The notes: generated from the letters alone by a model not told the origin. A stretch of 64,000 bases of DNA from Sphagnum compactum (GCA_965153455.1 OZ234493.1:3038001-3102000); one strand, 5' to 3'; counted from the stretch's first letter, positions 3,625 through 22,200 are shown. Numbers and translations: made by a program.

Positions 3625-4639
3625 TTGCTAATTACATTGTTATCTCCCAGGTAATGAAAGTGCATTCACACCTAATGTTAAGTGAAAATCTAGGTGGCAT
3701 TTTAGGTGGTACCCAATGTTAAATGGATGATTGGTTAATATTAAGTGAATGTTAACTTAATATAAAATCTTCATGGTAAATAGGTTTAGGTTTTAAATGA
3801 TTAGCTTGGTGTTAGAGGACTTAATACTATAGTCCTTAACACCAAATGTGAATACACCTTTGGTGTCATCACCAAGTTAGTCCCACCTGTTGAAACCAGT
3901 GTTGGGTGGTTATTTGATTTTTTTAATTGTTTGAAAACCATGATTATATACCTAAACCAAGTTTTTGATTTTTTTGGGGAGGAGTATTACGGTTATGATT
4001 TCTAAAAACGTCACTAATAACCATCCATCAAGGGTGTGTTCTTGTTTGTGATAATTGCTCAACACTAGTTAAACTAATCTTGGACGGGTAAGAACTAAGA
4101 AACACTGGTTCCAGTTAGTAAGAACTGGACTAAAATTAGTTTGATTTTCATAATTGATGACAATTCAATTCTATTTGTTTAAAGGAACTAGATCTAAATT
4201 CGCTTTCTTCATTCTATTGTTATGTGGAACTGGAACTAAAACTTAAATGAAAATAGGTACATGTATTTGAAAACAAGAAGACTGGAACTTGGGATATTCA
4301 GCTATTAACTACCAGTTCCATTTTGGGTTATTCAAAATCCAACTGTCCAAACCCAAACTAGAATTTTTTTTTTGAAGAACCAGATTCAAAATCAAATTCC
4401 TATTTCCTTTTAAAAGCTAAGTGATATTAAATTAAAGGGAATTAATAAGCTTGGTGTATTTTTTATATTTTTTTAAAAAATTAAAATAAAAAATCAACAT
4501 GGTTAATCCAGTTTTTAGGGGAAATAAGTGTTAAGACCCTGAAGTATTTTTAAAAGAATACAAAAATGTTTGTATTGGTATTAGGCTTAAAACAATTGTA
4601 AAATGGCTTAATTTCTTTCCTGAATTTTTAAAAGGTATA

Positions 4640-4980: not shown

Positions 4981-6211
4981 CTTGCCAAGCGATTGATTCA
5001 TTCTTTCAATGGCAGTGCATACAATCCATGGATATGAAGATCCTTCACAAACCCATGCCTAATTATGCACATTTGCTTCTCCAAACTGCCTCTTGGAGGC
5101 AACCAAAACTATTGTTCTTCAAAAATCTCTCTCATAACCCTCACAAATTGCTTCTAGTTTAGAATTGCAATGCTTTCTCCAAGGTGACATTACATTTGGG
5201 GAACACCCCGATTTTTTCTCTTTTTTCCTTTTTCCGTGTGATACCCAACAAGATACCCTTCGAGTCTGGCAAGAAAACATGAAAAGGACAAAATACCCAC
5301 TGGAGTGGGCTTTTAACTTTTCAAGAATGCCCCATCCTTTGGTGAAGAAAAAGTTCCACTTGGTAAGGGGTCCTACAAATACACTAAAAAAAATTCTGTG
5401 GGTGCTTTATGATATTGGAATTGTGGACTGCAGGCAGCAGGACCTTTTCTCTTCAATGTTATATTATTTGTGTCAAACAGATGTGTTAACTATCCTAATC
5501 AATGTGTAGGTTGGTACACTTAAGCAACTTTGCTATTTTTTGTGGTGAAATTTTGCAACTCAACCAAAAGAAATCAGAAAATGAAATTTTTGTGCTTTTG
5601 AAGGAAAAAATTTCACCATTTTTAAAAATAAAAATTAACTAGATGAGCCACATTTAGATGTAGGCAATTCTTGGGTCACTACTCAAAAGGAACACTTTTG
5701 TAAAAAATGTTACAACTCACCCAGGACAGTTGCCATTGTATGCTAATTCATGTTGACGATCCTTGCCAGTGTACCTGCTTGAGGAGTTTGAAAAACAAAG
5801 AACCCTGGTTAGCATGTGTGTACGTTTGAAGATGGTTTTTCTTTCTGTCACATACCATACCTGCCACTGATGTTGTTGATGGGATCGCAGGATGTGAAAA
5901 GTCTTGTATGCGGATGTTACTTGGCTCATCATAATGCTAACACTTGTAAGACCAAATACTTTAAGATTACAGGAGATAGATGGAAATTTTTGTGTAATAT
6001 TTTTTCCCAAAGATCTATTTCCAAAAAAACACAAGTCCCATCTACTTATATAATATCCTTGGGTGGTCGTCCTTTCCATCCATCCGTCTCTTCATCCATC
6101 TCGACATCCATCCATCCAAGTTCCTCATCCCGGAAGAAGAAGATGATGGAAGAGGAGGAGGAGGAGGAATGACGGCAGCAGCAGTTTATCCAAATGTTTA
6201 TGCGATCCAAT

Positions 6212-7640
6212 CCTATAGTTTTGCAATTTGCCAAAAGCTACAAACTAATTTTTAAAAACTAAAAATTGTTGAAAAAAAATGAGAAACGAGAGAAGAAATC
6301 TTTTGAAAACAACACAAGAAATTTCAAATTAAAAAAGAAGAAAACAAGTTATTAATAAATAAATAAAATGAAACAAAGTTGTAACAAAAAAGAAAAAAAC
6401 CGAACAAATATATATTTTTCAAAGGGAAAAAACTAAAAATAAAATAAAAACAAAAAACACTTTAACAATTAGAAACTTTTTAAAAACACTTTAAAATAGA
6501 AACAAAATGAAAACATATAAAATAAATATATTTAAACATGAAACAAAAAAGGGAAATACAGTAAAATAATCTTAAAAGAAAATCAAAAAATAGATGACAA
6601 AAACTAAGAAACAAAACAGTGAGCAAAAGAAAGAGAAAAAAAACCATACTTGAAAAAAAAATGAAGTTTTTCCAAACTTCAAACCTGCATCTAATCAAAC
6701 AAAAATACAAAAGTTTTTTAAAATTATTTTCATTATAAAACATATTAGAAAAACTAGAATTTTTTTGAAAAAGAAAATAGAAACAAAATAAATAAATAAA
6801 TAAATAAATGCATAAAAATAGAAAAAAATGAAGATAGACAAAATAAGAATAGAAAAAATAAAAACATGAAATAAACAGAAACAAAAAAAAGGTAAAAACG
6901 CAAAAACTATAAAAAAGGAATGGAAACAAATGAAACAAGGAAAGGGAAATACAATAAAATAATTTTAAAAGAAAAAAAAATTAAAATGAAGAAACCAAAT
7001 AAAGAATAAAAAATAAGAAAAAATAAAACTTATAATAATGAAGAAAAACCCTACTTGAAAAAAAATGAGGTGTGTCTTCTTTCTCCAAACTTCAAACTTG
7101 CATCCAAATAAAAATATATATAAAAGTGAAAAAGAAACACTTTATTTCTATTATACAAAATAATAATAAAAATAAAAAACACATAAAAATAAAAAATAAA
7201 AAAGATAAAAGTTTCTAGAAAAAACTAAAACGTGAACCAAGTTTGAAGAAACTGGGGGACTTCACAGTGCCCGGAGGTCAGGGGTACCCACTAGGTAATG
7301 TTTTAGGTGTCTGTCTATCTGATCGTCCTCCTTGGGGGTAAGGGGGTTAGGGTTAGCACGCCCTTCATAAACATGTTTCAAAAAGAAGAAAGCTTGGAAT
7401 GTGCCCAAATCCTTCACAAATCTCGGCAATTTCAAAACCTGTATTTTCCCTCCTCAAAATTTTTTTCCCTCCTTGAAATGTGGCGGTTTAGTTTTCTTTT
7501 TGAAAATTTTCCAAAACACTTGCTTCACCATGTATGTTTTCATGGGGGACTTTTCAGCAGATTTTTGCCACAAAAAAATAAAAATGGAATTAGCTGCTTT
7601 GCGCCTTTGTGTGTGTCCGAAGGTCACGGGTACCCACTAG
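6212..7640 (+). mobile_element. Probable non-autonomous Helitron-like element with two tandem 3' termini
   Basis: Two near-identical 3' signatures of a short GC-rich hairpin plus CTAG: GTGCCCGGAGGTCAGGGGTACCCACTAG (7267-7294) and GTGTCCGAAGGTCACGGGTACCCACTAG|T (7613-7641). Tentative 5' A|TC at 6212. The interior is very A-rich with a ~400 bp internal duplication. Confidence 0.5.
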
Positions 7641-15475: not shown

Positions 15476-16033
15476 CACCCCACAGCCCCCCCCCATGAGT
15501 GGGATTTCTAGGAAGTAATTTCATCATTTTTACACCTGGATGGTGTAAGAGATATTGAATTTTTAGTATTTTTCTCACTGGAAATTCAGTAAAATCCTCA
15601 AAAAAATTTGAAAATTCAATATCAATTAGTACATCTTTACAAAAATGTTATTTTTTCAATTTTGAGCTGTTGCTCAAGAGGTGATCGATCATCCCTTTGA
15701 ATATTTAACCAAATTTGAAGATATTCAAAATATGAAAGTGAAAAAATAATAATTAAGCACCCATTCATGTCATAGGCTATTGTGGTGATTTTTTATGAAT
15801 GTTTTTGGTTTTTTTTTTTTGACAATTTTTTTTTTAAAACCTGGAATTTGTTACATATTTGTCAATACATTTTTCACAAAATTGGTAGGTGCCAAAAAAA
15901 AATCACCCGTTCACACTTGGGGCCAATGGGAACAACTCTTTTGCTTCCCTCAAAACAAAATTTCCACTTGCAACATATTATTCGGTGAGGGGTTGTCCCT
16001 GTTGAGTTTTTTAGTACCATAGTACACGTTTTG

Positions 16034-16414
16034 TTATCTTCTTGTGTGGGGGTTGTCGGTGGACTGCTTTGCATACCTTCTTTTTAAGCGTGCTCTTTCT
16101 CCTTTCATATATCGCCTTACACAATCCCTAAAGCCAGCAGCACTTAATTCACCACCTACATATTCAAATTTCCCATCCAAGTGCAAGCGGAGTCTAGCCA
16201 TGTCTACAGGGTCCTGTTCTGTAACCTTAACCACTGCCATGTTCAAAGTCCGAGGTGCTAGCGACCTAATTGCACCATCCCATGCATCCTTCCCTTCACA
16301 TGCACCATCAATTTTGCCATGCCTTGTCACTTGCACCTTATGGCCTGGTAAGCCTTTTTCCTTTTGTTCTTGGGCTTCAAATTCTATAGCTCGCTTTGAA
16401 GCCCGTTGTTGCAT
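16034..16414 (-). mobile_element. TE-associated ORF fragment (possibly En/Spm-like accessory protein)
   Basis: Clean 126 aa ORF (WDGAIRSLAPRTL...FEYVGGELS...FRDCVRRYMKGERARLK) that resembles repeat-derived moss ORFs from memory. It is truncated and I could not build a host gene model. Confidence 0.35.
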
Positions 16415-16989
16415 CTACTTCTATTTCATTGTCCAAGGCCATGTCTGGTGCTTGCCCGCCCATGGGTGAATGTGGTTGCACCCTTTGACATAGCCCCTGA
16501 TCACATACACCCCCTCCTTCACCCCATGTTGATTCACACATGTTGCTTCTAGCCCTTCCACAAGTGGCACAATAGTTTGTAAGTTTTTGTGCCCAGGGCT
16601 CAATCTTACCTTCCAATTAGGACATTGTGACACTTGGCAACAACTCCACTGTCTTGTCTGCCCACATTGTCCAGCATTCCATGTGCATTCTGAACTTCCA
16701 ACACCATGTTTACATGCCTGATTATTGCACCTTGCAAAGTCACCACCATGCTTGCCACTTTGTACTGTTGTCGATGTGTTCTTTTGCAGTGGCATTCACC
16801 ATATTGACTTCTGGTCCGGTTTCAACCCGAGCTTTCTTTGATGTTGCTTTCTTTTCTCAAGCACACACACAACATGTTATACATAGGGAATGGGTAGAAG
16901 CTAGCAAAACATACAGTCTGGTCATATATTGTCAACATGAGACATGTAAATCCAAAAAAAACAGAGATTCCTATGGCAAACTTTTCAAT

Positions 16990-17900
16990 CATGAACAACC
17001 CTAATCACACAAATAGGGCTATATATCAAAGGCATGCACATAAAGACTGATGACATTGAAGACAACCAACAAAGTTTTTGGTAAGAAATTCAGAAAACAC
17101 CTTCCCATGAGGTATAACTTTATAGAGGAAATCCAATTTTCTTTTGTATCCAGCCAAAAGTTCTATGGAAAGAACATACGGATCACTAAGGTAATCCAGT
17201 GATGAATCATGACAGATAGGATCTTTCTACAGAAGAAGGGCACACGAAGAGATAATGGAGCACAACCAACAGCAAGGGATTGACTTTGGACTTCCGAACC
17301 TTTTGGGATGCACAACAGAAAATTTAGGACCTTCTTAGGTACCCATTAAAACATAACATAGGACTGTTACAAACTTGGCTACACAACCTTCTTTCTAAGT
17401 CATACGATTTGGAAAGTACAGAATGAAGGATAGCCATCCATTTCTTCCTACTGTTGTGGCAACAAGATTGAACCTTTGACGTTCAATTTTCCCATTTGAA
17501 TCCATAAATCTCCCATAATTTTTTCATTAGCAAAGATATTAAAAGAACAAAAAGCTTCTTTGACTTAGGCACATACGAAGAGTTTTAAATCAATAACAGA
17601 ATTGGTGAGCTTTTCCAATATTCGGGCTTCTCTTACATGCTCTTAGGATCTTGCAAAAACTGAGCTACAGGTTTGACCATCATATAGCACTTAACTGGAA
17701 CCAGTGTTACGGATTACATAGATGACACCTCTATATGAAACAGAACAAATTTTGGCAACAAGTTTGAGGTGCTTTTGCCTTAACCTTCTAAGCCTGTTGA
17801 GAGACTTTAATTAACCCTTTACAGAACACAGCATGATCAGCAAATTCCTGAAAGAAAACCATTTCATATTTGCATTACTGAAATCATGGAGATTTATAAG
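16990..17900 (-). pseudogene. GIY-YIG endonuclease module, copy 2, more decayed
   Basis: Reads CSVSYRGVIYVIRNTGSS*VLYMGQTCSSVFARS*EHVREAR...WMAILHSVLSKSYDL...HRTFG, collinear with copy 1 at an offset of ~1.38 kb. Confidence 0.75.
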
Positions 17901-18329
17901 ATTATTTCTGGACATGAAAGAAAACCTGATACAAAAGAAAAACTCTGATGAACAAAAAGGGCACAATTCTAGATCTTAACTGAAAGTTTGAAGACACTCT
18001 GGATAAAGGCAATAATTTCCAAGAATAGTGATAGACTTTGCAAGCTCTGAATTTAAAGAAATGTTTACCACCTCAAGCAAAAACCTCCAATCTTGATAAA
18101 GGAAATCAAGAAAAAGTGAATTACCAAGACCCCTACAACACCACAGACCCATGTGTCTGGAATACGGAAGTGGTCCAATGCACACCTACTGGATCCATCA
18201 TTGGCTTGTGAGTTCTCCATCCCTTTCTACACCATGTTTAATACCAGCAACCTCAACCTTTGTACAAAGAAGAATCAGAAGAGGTTTGAACCACTAAGGA
18301 ATCACGAGTCCTCTTCTGTACAAACAAAA

Positions 18330-19280
18330 GAACTTTGGCCTTCCACTCACTTAATACATGGCCAACATCAAGACCGAGAACAGAAGGAGAAAACTCAGAC
18401 AGCAACATAAGCATACGAACCAAGTTCTTAGTCTTATACTTGGAGAGAAAAACAATAGAAAACTTACCTTGAGACATAAGAGAAGAAAGGAAAACCAGCA
18501 TTCTATTGTAATCTCTGTAGCCAAAAAATCTGTGAGGAGAAAGGTGAGGGATCCCACTATGATTTGGTTTCACATCATCAGAAGGAGAACCAGTCTCCTC
18601 AAAAACTGGCGAAGAAGGAGGAGGTAAACTTACAGCAACATTAGGAATAACATTGAGAGGAACCCAAACATTGTTAAAAGGACGAGCAAATGAAGGCTTG
18701 CTGCCCTTTCTCCACAACATTGCAAAAGCTTTATGTACCCTAGGAGAACGTCTATTGTTTGACTTGCCTTCTAGGTTGTAACCCTTTGGAAAGAAAGTGT
18801 GTAAAATACTCATCCATTTTCTTTCCAATTGAGAGGCAACAACCTTAAACAAGTTCAGAGCAAAACGACCTCCAGAATCAAAGAAATTCCCATCTACTTT
18901 TTCAATATGAAAAACTCTGAAGGAATGGAACCCTCTTTAGCAATGGCAGCATATAGTGGCTTAAAATCAAATTACGAACTAGCAAATTTAGACAATCTTT
19001 TAGCTTCTCTTATATGCTCTTGGAATCTCTCAAAGGCAGACTTACATGTGGAACCAACATATAGCATTCTACTATTATTGACACTGTAAATAACATAAAT
19101 TACCCCCTTATCTGAAAATGGACAGAGGCTAGTTGAAGAATTAAGGTGTTCTTGCCTAAGCCTTCTATCATAGTTGAGAGACTTAATGTTGAAGACAGAA
19201 AAATGAGTATTGGAAATTACCTTTTTAACTGGGCCCCATTTTATGTTTCCATTTCCAAATTTATGGAGCTTATGTGCTGT
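18330..19280 (-). pseudogene. GIY-YIG endonuclease module, copy 1 (Penelope-like element type), disabled
   Basis: Reads CPFSDKGVIYVIYSVNNSRMLYVGSTCKSAFERFQEH, then a stop (18972-18974) and a frameshift (~18930), then FRVFHIEKV...LERKWMSILHTFFPKGYNL (ORF 18253-18852). Confidence 0.8.
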
Positions 19281-22200
19281 AACATGTAAACCCAGAAGAC
19301 AATACTAGATATTCTACAAGTGGCCATCTCTAATGTGCAGTTTAAGGGCCAGTAAGCACATATCAGTTCTCATGTAACAAACGGGGCATTTGGACTAGTA
19401 AGACAAGCACGCAATCCCTAAAGAAAAAACTGATTTGCAAACTCATCAGGGAGACAATTCTAGTTTGGTAATTATACTTCTTCACATTCTTCAGGCACAA
19501 AAGCCCACAGAGCATCACATCTCTTTACAGTGTGGCTTGTGCAGTTGGAAGACAATCTTCACAATAATGCATCTACAGTAATCAGATGCAATGTCACTGC
19601 TTCTTGAGGAATCTTGGAGGGGGATAAAATGTAGCATTCAGTTCAGATATGATGTCAGAAGAGAAAGAAGAGAAGAAAGTTTTGTTTGTCTCTGTTTGTG
19701 TTATATCAAATATGATGGTGAATGCAAAACAGGTGTGCACCAAGTCCACAGATGATAAGGAACGATGCAAAGGAGCTCAGTGTTCAACCCAGGAAATACA
19801 ACAGTCATTTTTCATAATAAAACATGATGGGTGTACTTAGAAAGTACTAGAAATGGTCTTACAAAGTAGTCATACATCCATGAATTAATCAATCAATCAA
19901 ACAAACAAATAATCAATCAATCAATCAAATTTGTCTACCTTTCATCATCATGGCCTGGATATGTTGATGCCCTTTGATTTAAGATGACATCCATCATCAC
20001 CACTCTTGTCCCCAAAAGAAAACCCCTTAACAATATTTACATTATTATTCCTTCCTTCCTTCCTTTCTTTTCACCTTTATACACTGACTGATAATTGAGT
20101 AAATTCAAGCTGAAGTTGACTGTACATTTTTGTACAGATTACCATATTGTTTGTTGTCCAGTGCCAGTCATAATGACAAAAAAACAACATAGCACACGAA
20201 TAACAACAAGCACCCAAAACCAAACAAAACTGCAAATCAAAACCCACCAAGCACCCAAAACAAAATAAACCCTGCAAATCAAAACCCACAAGCACCCAAA
20301 GCTCGTGATCTAGATTTGAGTTTTTTAGCTCTTTGATAATGCTATGTGGAGTTTGAGTTGAACTTGTTAGTAGCTTTTTTGATAACCTTATGTGGAGCTT
20401 GAGTTGAGCTCTTTCTTTGACCGAATAACGTAAGTTTTTAGAGCCAAGATGAACCTTATCTCTTTGACCATCCATGTGCAACTCTGGAGAATTTTAACTG
20501 AGTTGGAAGTTTAGTTTTGTCATGCTCCTAGATCGTCGTCATCAAATAAGCTTTGGGACAATGTTCCACTGTGTGGCTAAAAAGCATATACATAACATGA
20601 CAGAAGAAGAATGACACCGAAGTTTTGCCTGCCGACTACATATATGACTAACTAACTTGAACAGATTGATGATCATATCTTTTCACCCTTTCATGACCTA
20701 TATATGCTATGTACGACAGACATTGCAAAATAGCTACCAAAGACCCCAAAATATGATGAGACCATGTGTAAATTAGGTGACCCAAAAAAAACAAAGAGAG
20801 TGAGGTATTGCCACCCATCTCACCCTCTTCATTAATTCCATGATCCTTCCCCTCAAATCATTAGCAAAACAATCCATCTGTCAAAAATAAAACAAAAAAA
20901 AGATCTTTGAAAATCTTTAAGGAATCTGTAAGGAAACAATACACTACTGCAGCAAAAACATGACATTTGGATGATTGGATTGTTGGAAAAAACAATTAGT
21001 CACACATGAGATTGCATCAAACAACACAAAATCACACACACCAGACTGCAGGAAAACACAAAATTGCACACCAGAAAACAAAAAATCACATACCAGGCTA
21101 CCAAAATCAGACACCAAAATTGCAGCAAAAGACACAAAATCACATAGTACCAGATTGCAGAAGAAAACACATAGCAGACACAGAGGGAGGGAGGTCGGGG
21201 CACAGAGTTAGGCTGAGTCACAAAGCCTATGGGGGGGAGTCTTTTTAATGTTTGTTAACATTTTACCAGAATTTGTTTGTCTGTTTTGTTATAGATCTTG
21301 CCTGTTTTTATTCTGCTTCAGTTTCATTTGCTAGAATAAACTTCAACTCAATACGGACTAGTAAGGCTCATAGGACCAATCACAAATCTCACAAATATTG
21401 TGCCTTCAATAATGTTGTTACTTCTAGTATCTTTGACATCAAAATGGACCTCAAAAACAATATTTGATGGGGGGGGGGGGGAGGGGTACATTACATTTGG
21501 TGTGGGGGTCCGTTTGCTAGGTGCCTTATTCTGTTCCTTCATAATTGAAGATGCAACTGGCAGCTCAGAACCTTCTGACTCCTCTGCATTTGAGTTGTAG
21601 TCGCTGCTACATGAAGTGTCGCATTCACTAGATGCTGCTGATGTCGACGACCCTTCCTCTTCCACCACATGACGATGTGGTTTTCCAACATTCCTAGTGT
21701 TCCTCCTCTTGCTTTGGTGTCCAAGCGTTCTCCCATCCACCACCTTTTGGGTGGACTTCTTACTTGTCTTCTTCCTCCCTTGCATGGTTGTTGAGTTCAT
21801 GAAGTGACGACTGCCAAGTGACCGAGTGTCTCCAAAATACAGCAAAGGAGTAATTAGTTTGGATTAAGACTGTCTCAATAAGCACATGACCACTAACTAG
21901 CATACAAACCTAATTTAAAGCTATGCATGTAGTAAAAGATTACCAGAAACCCTATTTCATGGTAGCACCGAACACATCGATTTCAGTCCCTAAACCCTAA
22001 CCCCATGAAAATTTTAGAATAGATTGGAATTCGGAGAGTAGCTACAACCTAACACTAGAACAAAGACTATTGAAGCGTGTTCAAACTATTTGGTAGGCGT
22101 ATACACAAATCTCACGCACATAGTCGGACTTCCAAACTCTTTCATACAGTGCAGGCAATGGAGATTGCACGATCCATTACTAAATTCTGTATGGGCCTCT

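Follow-up and report, generated by a model that had tools for sequence, protein, structure and literature searches.

Two tandem GIY-YIG modules of a peat moss genomic stretch as very probable relics of Chlamys-type Penelope-like elements

The window analysed here, i.e., the entire stretch of 64,000 nt from Sphagnum compactum (GCA_965153455.1 OZ234493.1:3038001-3102000), contains two GIY-YIG endonuclease modules on its minus strand, in the following termed unit A and unit B. They very probably constitute two dead and incomplete copies of Penelope-like elements (PLEs) of the Chlamys type, arranged head to tail in the nuclear genome of a Sphagnum-like moss. The relics have no function of their own and are ordinary transposon debris. 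An earlier note, made from the sequence alone, had described the pair as lacking a reverse transcriptase (RT) and had considered it a relic of a PLE with the endonuclease (EN) in first position or, alternatively, a two-nuclease gene of another element. Concerning the surroundings, we take the long open reading frames (ORFs) of the window to be kinase-like ones and one resembling a proteasome ATPase, and the window to be nuclear DNA of a plant-like eukaryote.

Results

Organization of the two modules

Six-frame translation of the window reveals two collinear modules that are offset in register by 1,377 bp (19187 vs 17810). Unit A exhibits the motifs HKFGNGNIKW, KSLNYDRRLRQEHL, GVIYVIYSVNNSRMLYVGSTCKSAFERFQEHIREAK, WMSILHTFFPKGYNL, and HRFFGY, and unit B the motifs HDFSNANMKW, KSLNRLRRLRQKHL, GVIYVIRNTGSS*VLYDGQTCSSVFARS*EHVREAR, WMAILHSVLSKSYDL, and HRTFGW. 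The two units are related at the protein level (tblastx: E 1.05e-27, with 45% amino-acid (aa) identity along 100 aa and two further collinear pieces) as well as at the nucleotide level (blastn: 67.4% over 187 nt, E 1.6e-10). The secure part of this alignment comprises about 0.5 kb with the N-terminal motifs and the GIY-YIG domain; beyond it, unit B shows weak collinear traces only, which extend to around 17068 (23.1 bits, E 0.006; the best of 20 shuffled queries reached 21.9 bits).

Both modules are interrupted, unit A by one in-frame stop and one frameshift (near 18933), unit B by four in-frame stops in 144 codons and at least three frameshifts. The pieces of unit A retain all four catalytic residues (R, H, E, and N); in unit B, the catalytic E (SRKKW for LERKW) and the catalytic N (SYDLE for GYNLE) are replaced. 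The two diverged, collinear, and broken modules described in the earlier note are hence present in the window, although the length of around 1.38 kb assigned there to each unit applies to their spacing and not to their extent, and although, of the motifs quoted for both units, LY(V/M)G reads LYDG in unit B.

Identity of the nuclease

The 110-aa ORF of unit A (18972-19304, minus strand) matches the first 35 of the 78 profile positions of the Pfam family PF01541 (GIY-YIG) with 22.8 bits (cut-off 22.6; E 1.2e-4), whereas the remaining three pieces of A and B yield no Pfam match. Among the related proteins described below, the same profile is found clearly above its cut-off in P0042 (27.4 bits), P0127 (26.9 bits), and P0146 (25.2 bits); it stays under the cut-off in the family member P0001 (18.6 bits) and does not match the members P0003, P0006, and P0007. 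The profile test proposed in the earlier note is thereby marginal for unit A and clear for three of its relatives.

An AlphaFold model of an intact homologue (L004:575-1789), based on an alignment of 19 relatives, reaches block means of the predicted local distance difference test (pLDDT) of 74-98, mostly 86-98, over residues 31-190, and exhibits the order of strands and helices of the GIY-YIG fold (beta-beta-alpha-alpha-beta-alpha). In an exhaustive VIA-align search with this model, the catalytic domain of I-TevI (1ln0_A) was the sole chain with Z of at least 8 among 48,161 (Z 10.2, root-mean-square deviation 1.9 A, 90/92 residues, 22% identity), followed by T4 EndoII with Z 7.5. The fold assignment is based on this search, since it settled what Foldseek had left non-significant. 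On inspection, neither the homologue L004:575-1789 nor units A and B possess a cysteine between GVIY and YVG or a CxxC motif upstream.

Relatives and full-length copies of the family

The first ORF of unit A is 82-90% identical to five proteins, and unit A is therefore a copy of a repeat family. Its second, 227-aa ORF matches 70 proteins at E <=1e-3 among 1.84 billion representatives. These are mostly short fragments of the family, but in seven of them, with lengths of 951-1218 aa, the match falls within the N-terminal third. When ten longer relatives were compared to Pfam, GIY-YIG was found near the N-terminus in four, a weak RVT_1 near residues 720-870 in three, and no match in the other three. 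P0146 possesses both domains above the Pfam cut-offs, GIY-YIG at residues 57-145 and then RVT_1 at residues 536-731 (30.0 bits). After the nuclease, the long relatives have (R)xFGYRDY, CPC, GxKF, VDKAANN, and RT motifs in common. The family protein P0006 matches P0042 residues 175-545 (E 1e-34), including the CAC and GTKFR of P0006. The CxC-linker part of P0006 found no match among proteins of 721-2055 aa, and the RT was reached through contigs instead.

When metagenome contigs were scanned with P0006, 342 stretches matched; 143 of them encode a relative, and 80 loci were kept. P0042 is matched by 74 of these 80 loci; the RT core is reached in 24, EN and RT together occur in 18, and the order EN then RT within a single copy is found in 17 of the 80. 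L004, for instance, is covered by one high-scoring segment pair with P0042 (query residues 160-1061, E 8.5e-62), and the nuclease-bearing full-length copies on these contigs (L004, L025, L044, L052, and L068) consist of one nuclease and then the RT. The contigs are inferred to be moss DNA because a member of the 90%-identity cluster bears the name of a Sphagnum protein and because moss metagenome runs contain half of the stretch's words.

The alignment of the RT part (A1) comprises CxC (CAC in the moss), GTKFR, DKC, DFSTLYT, GIPMGTN, and FVDD. CAC is situated at ORF residue 120 of L044:4942-7086, and relatives possess CPC or CNC; the CxC/GxKF stretch is deleted in unit A, and the CxC motif was not found in unit B. 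The distance between RT motifs A and B, the only clue here to a possible insertion-in-fingers domain, amounts to 99 aa in the moss ORF; it is 92-111 aa for seven of the relatives and 70 aa for P0146. In a Foldseek search with the predicted structure of L044:4942-7086 (pLDDT 72.7), ranks 1-17 were all occupied by chains of telomerase reverse transcriptase (TERT; best E 5.5e-9), with prokaryotic RTs after them. The assignment of a putative RT to the moss family rests on the motifs, the relatives, and this predicted fold, and a telomerase-RT-like model would be as expected of the RT of a PLE. In line with the first of the two readings in the earlier note, the units thus belong with EN-first Penelope-like sequences of a moss, with relatives that carry an N-terminal GIY-YIG and a C-terminal RT.

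As reference copy we used L044 3210-7543 (4.33 kb), which corresponds to the full length of the family of about 4.3 kb. Most of the 29 matches listed have a sharp common 3' end (...CTATTCTTATGAAAGATAT), after which the flanks are unlike each other, whereas the 5' starts are graded and lie at many different positions. In L033, L034, L045, L046, L055, L057, and L068, a 3'-terminal piece of around 200-520 bp is repeated ahead of the 5' region, i.e., as a pseudo-long terminal repeat (pseudo-LTR), which begins at L044 position 7040, 7111-7127, or 7335 and runs to 7543. It is situated about 70 bp ahead of the 5' region (L044 3210) in the first six of these loci and ahead of a copy beginning at L044 3610 in L068. 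The sequence of about 70 bp between the 3' end of the pseudo-LTR and the 5' start of the full copy (TTTTTCCAGTCAC...TTTGGGGAG) is conserved between copies and is therefore part of the element or of its 'tail' and not of the target.

Target duplications of 15 bp (L044) and 16 bp (L025) were found. Together with the identity of around 92-97% between copies and with sense-strand poly(A) RNA reads, they would point to a young family. Rfam yielded no match at the gathering score in the window and five loci, and L044, L033, L045, and window positions 15900-21500 contain no hammerhead ribozyme at E <=1. A match to CrcZ in L033 was disregarded, being situated outside the element and scoring 29.9 bits where the gathering score is 95.

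The closest structural match of the nuclease being phage I-TevI, and no RT being present in the window, the modules could be regarded as relics of free-standing homing endonucleases that reached the nucleus from an organelle, a phage, or a giant virus. This origin is extremely improbable, since the linker that follows the nuclease shares homology with the one between EN and RT in EN-RT proteins of 1,000 aa, the RT follows in the same ORF line in copies of the family, and the family possesses pseudo-LTRs, target duplications, and 5' truncation. Homing endonucleases are characterized by a separate ORF that includes a DNA-binding module of its own and is in no case fused to an RT. This is not what we found; the relatives are linked to an RT, which is the opposite of the grouping that the earlier note had named as speaking against a Penelope-like origin. 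Five pattern matches in IMG/VR viral contigs encode no relative, which is weak evidence, as a scan with a single protein detects close relatives only.

Loss of the RT and the composite locus

Unit A is 92.9% identical to L044 4060-4976 across 19273-18360 (92-93% to the family overall), resumes with L044 5519-5611 at 18356-18264, and then the match stops (Table 1). Across the deletion junction, the protein reads GLDVGHV|LSEWKAK. The RT and the 3' end (about 1.9 kb) are missing past 18264, and no trace of an RT exists elsewhere in the window; in this respect, the description of the locus in the earlier note was correct. Unit A appears to be a fairly young copy that is 5'-truncated, has lost its CxC linker, and is cut before the RT core.

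Unit B shares around 70% of its nucleotides and 42-47% of its amino acids with family A. It is a separate copy that retains no more than a pre-ORF-like stretch of its own, the nuclease, and part of the linker; judged by its sequence, it would be either far older than unit A or derived from a diverged lineage. Whereas the earlier note spoke of a single relic, the Penelope-like character of which is retained here, there are two of them, differing in age and lineage.

Between A and B, the nonsynonymous divergence (dN) is 0.49 and the synonymous divergence (dS) 1.37 (saturated), and the differences at codon positions 1/2/3 number 46/41/62 of 115 codons. This would fit partial selection as live elements and subsequent neutral decay, such that the assumption of a long evolution of each unit as coding sequence before its decay is supported in part. 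Between A and an intact copy, dN is 0.063 and dS 0.099 (dN/dS around 0.63), which is near neutral.

Further copies of the locus exist. L027, L028, L031, L050, and L061 exhibit the same map as the window or 92-96% identity to it. L007, L008, and L012 share with the window the upstream stretch (21812-20857 and 19762-19542) and unit B (17989-16070) and hold, in the same place, L044 4460 to 6494, 6610, or 6685, i.e., the CxC linker and around 1.1 kb more of RT-coding sequence; these three are without the first 400 bp of A and the first 270 bp or so of B. Because they keep RT-coding sequence, the common ancestor of the composite copies had a far more complete A ahead of B, and its lineages lost different parts. 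The RT appears to have been lost by later deletion, and not to be missing by design.

The arrangement of two collinear nuclease modules in the same orientation, at a distance of 1,377 bp, recurs in L008, L012, L027, L028, and L050, as would be the case if a single element or gene encoded two tandem GIY-YIG nucleases by design and no RT. These five loci, however, are copies of one composite with flanks in common, and the double module was found in copies of this single composite locus only; the other mapped copies, including the full-length ones, have one nuclease and then the RT. Moreover, unit A is 92-93% identical to single-nuclease copies and only around 70% to B, B has a pre-ORF stretch of its own, and stops and frameshifts break both modules. 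A two-nuclease gene, which the earlier note had left as an alternative, is thus very improbable, and two separate, decayed copies of Chlamys-type elements are preferred.

Two further peculiarities concern the sequence upstream of unit A. A stretch of 1,090 bp (window 19763-20852) is absent from L028 and L031, in which the aligned blocks abut, and the same gap exists in L007, L012, and L061; a DNA contig from run X1 also bridges 19762 and 20853, with 12 different letters in between. It is either an insertion in the lineage of the window or a deletion in the other copies. In L017, positions 3845-4083 and 4247-4435 correspond to window 19512-19273 and 19730-19542, respectively, such that the two stretches that precede A in the window follow, in swapped order, a complete 3' end of family A. 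This would represent either a complex tandem or a rearrangement.

Table 1. Coordinates of the features of the window and of related loci (window positions unless a locus is named)
Feature	Position	Strand	Remarks
Unit A, first part	18930..19273	-	Frame -3; HKFGNGNIKW, KSLN..RRLRQEHL, first half of GIY-YIG (GVIY...LYVG; R and H of FERFQEH); stop at 18974-18972
Unit A, 5' truncation point	19273	-	Equals L044 position 4060
Unit A, second part	18357..18936	-	Frame -2, within the 227-aa ORF 18936-18253; second half of GIY-YIG (E of LERKW, N of GYNLE), linker with HRFFGYRDY
Unit A, deletion junction	18356..18357	-	Internal deletion of 542 bp; L044 4977-5518 missing (remaining linker with CxC and GxKF)
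Unit A, remnant ahead of the RT core	18264..18356	-	93 bp; L044 5519-5611, 96.8% identity; unit A ends at 18264
Unit B, pre-ORF-like stretch	18037..18112	-	L044 3922-3994, 73.7% identity
Unit B, nuclease module	17375..17927	-	42-47% aa identity to family A; 4 in-frame stops, frameshift; E and N replaced
Unit B, linker traces (weak)	17068..17345	-	WVPKKV 17345-17304; HRTFGW 17167-17150; YKRKLDFLYKVIPHGK..FSEFLTKNFV 17148-17068
Span removed by splicing	16851..21494	-	4,644 bp, GT..AG; both units inside, in sense orientation
Exons	near 21495-21863, 16850-16609, 16495-16070	-	RNA reads
Conserved spacer of about 70 bp	L033 8903-8976; L045 475-546; L034 5147-5215; L055 9087-9158
Paralogue locus of the exon	L002 1635-3242 and 5134-5478

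Transcription, splicing, and the neighbouring exon

Poly(A) RNA reads that derive from a related organism and are for the most part 95-99% alike join 21495 to 16850 and thereby skip both units, with GT..AG on the minus strand. The junction was found in nine reads at seven start places in X24 and in one metatranscriptome contig each in X15 and X17; a further intron of 113 bp (16608-16496) is removed in the same RNA. The splicing reads may derive from a homeologue or a sister species.

RNA reads are also present within the units, on 18111-18512, with loose ends at 18264, 18356, and 18357 (32, 20, and 11 reads, respectively). The reads on 18264-18512 come from other family members because they run on into the sequence of copies without the deletions of the window, and the family is therefore transcribed in sense in the related organism.

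With RNA reads on the units, an ORF of 227 aa kept in unit A, and all four catalytic residues present in its pieces, a domesticated or otherwise functional host gene derived from a PLE nuclease was considered. It is exceedingly improbable: the nuclease domain of A is split by a stop and a frameshift, its divergence from an intact copy is near neutral, the reads continue at 18264 and 18356/18357 as do copies that lack the window's deletions, and splicing removes the entire span from the local transcript. The two units are accordingly regarded as debris of Chlamys-type elements within a spliced-out span.

Concerning the neighbouring exon, a minus-strand, exon-like ORF (16034-16414, 126 aa) is 88% identical in L008 (3890-4558), the similarity of the window breaking off at 16070. 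The consensus sequences of loose read ends beyond 16070 and beyond 17222 are not found in the window; the one beyond 16070 occurs in L008, and part of the RNA therefore stems from sister copies. In L008, the continuation of the ORF shows a weak match to Pfam Transposase_24 (Ptta/En/Spm; 18.2 bits, E 0.0029, under the cut-off). Judged from this similarity, the neighbouring 'gene' may belong to a CACTA-type transposon, and the composite may lie inside a further repeated unit; its presence in several copies would then be accounted for. Window 16411-16067, which is 70% identical to L002 5134-5478, was also considered as the 3' end of unit B; this was rejected, as it is absent from the reference element and represents the exon-like ORF of the neighbouring transcribed unit.

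A paralogue of the exon (66% aa and 70% nt identity) is found at one locus that is present in several assemblies (L002, L003, L005, L010, and L011). Around 1.9 kb upstream of it and in the same orientation, a copy of family A is situated that is 93% identical to the reference and truncated at reference position 5456. If the two insertions into the equivalent intron were independent, a preference for certain targets would be suggested, with chance or gene conversion as alternatives.

Discussion

Comparison with known Penelope-like elements

The comparison draws on parts of Craig, Yushenova, Rodriguez, and Arkhipova 2021 (PMC8557442) and of two reviews on plant transposable elements (PMC9033089, PMC11630846), and statements on what is described there refer to these parts. 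Chlamys elements are reported from green algae, Chara, Selaginella, and the slime mould Physarum; they are 3.3-8.2 kb long, and many of them, but not all in the clade, are biased to (CA)n or (C)n microsatellites (PMC8557442). The absence of CCHH and CX2-5CxxC separates Chlamys from Naiad and the canonical PLEs, and the lack of a canonical hammerhead is typical of most Chlamys elements, though not strictly defining (PMC8557442).

The organization of the moss family is most similar to that of Chlamys. Both possess, in a single ORF line, an N-terminal GIY-YIG with R, H, E, and N, followed by CxC, GxKF, DK-x, and the RT, and both exhibit neither CCHH nor CX2-5CxxC in the nuclease; a long stretch between RT motifs A and B may be a further common feature. 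Pseudo-LTRs, frequent 5' truncation, the lack of a canonical hammerhead, and a host of the green lineage are likewise common to Chlamys and to the moss family with its 4.3 kb. Despite this general similarity, there are differences: the host of the family is a true moss, its two target sites are not (CA)n or (C)n, and the copies in the window themselves are without CxC and RT.

The Naiad PLEs of invertebrates are equally EN-first, with a CxC linker, pseudo-LTRs, and mostly no hammerhead, but they possess a CCHH within the GIY-YIG core and a CX2-5CxxC upstream of it, and their hosts are animals (PMC8557442). PLE-X, the EN-minus type, resembles the moss family as a streptophyte or land-plant PLE with CxC in Selaginella and Chara, whereas it has no GIY-YIG, carries canonical hammerheads, and targets 28S rDNA in Selaginella (PMC8557442); in the moss family, the nuclease is present, no Rfam hammerhead is found, and the insertion sites are dispersed. 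Canonical PLEs (Penelope/Poseidon and the 'Dryad' of conifers) share with the moss family the telomerase-like RT, GIY-YIG, pseudo-LTRs, and 5' truncation, whereas in these the RT precedes the EN, and CCHH and hammerhead ribozymes are present (PMC9033089). I-TevI (PDB 1ln0), finally, has the same fold as the moss nuclease (Z and deviation as given above), but it stands alone as the endonuclease of a phage intron, possesses a DNA-binding domain of its own, and lacks an RT, whereas the moss domain forms the head of a retrotransposon polyprotein.

Insertion and decay

In live members of the family, the element would be transcribed, the GIY-YIG nuclease would nick the target, and the RT would copy the RNA onto the nick by target-primed reverse transcription; target duplications of 15-16 bp, frequent 5' truncation, and partial tandems, i.e., pseudo-LTRs, would be the outcome. 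For the composite locus, we infer that B inserted first, that A later inserted beside B, and that deletions followed.

Several observations weigh against the assignment of the units to such a Chlamys-type family. Concerning the window itself, the Pfam score of its ORF exceeds the cut-off by 0.2 bits, with half of the profile covered, and in the Foldseek search with the nuclease model nothing was found at E <=0.001 (I-TevI ranked first, but with E 0.79). The pair of A and B differs from the pseudo-LTR form in that the upstream partial copy, A, is without its 3' end, which such a copy usually keeps. Among 221 collected proteins, there is no lineage nearer to unit B than around 47% aa identity over the module. 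Concerning the family, an uninterrupted ORF from EN to RT exists in none of the 80 loci (the longest ORFs have 803 and 714 aa), and the moss origin of the loci on metagenome contigs is an indirect one, derived from cluster names and shared words. The RT ORFs of the moss match no Pfam family, and sequence searches of the PDB with the ORF and with the profile A1 yielded nothing under E 0.35 (best 0.35 and 0.76). Microsatellite targets are found neither in the duplications of L044 and L025 nor in the 3' flanks of the listed copies, a small sample. Finally, the family is placed in Chlamys by architecture and motifs as given in the part of Craig et al. 2021 (PMC8557442) used here, and this placement is to be taken as a probable one.

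Significance

For land plants, the parts of the two reviews consulted mention only the conifer Dryads and EN-minus PLEs (PMC9033089, PMC11630846), and in the part of PMC8557442 used here, a few BlastP hits in mosses are mentioned only for the EN-minus PLE-X type. Among freely available full texts, with neither Repbase nor the supplementary files of Craig et al. included, no description of a nuclease-first PLE in the context of mosses, Sphagnum, or land plants was found. The family from which the relics derive seems to be a so far undescribed member, in mosses, of an already known clade. Tentatively, and with a good deal of doubt, one might go further and see in it an undescribed endonuclease-first (Chlamys-type) family of peat mosses that provides the first nuclease-bearing PLE of the clade in a bryophyte and that possibly prefers older PLE copies or one intron of a Ptta/En/Spm-like gene family.

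The value of the finding is taxonomic. An EN-plus family of 4.3 kb with pseudo-LTRs in peat mosses would extend the known range of the clade among land plants, and such a family would need an entry in bryophyte repeat libraries, its copies now being labelled as hypothetical proteins.

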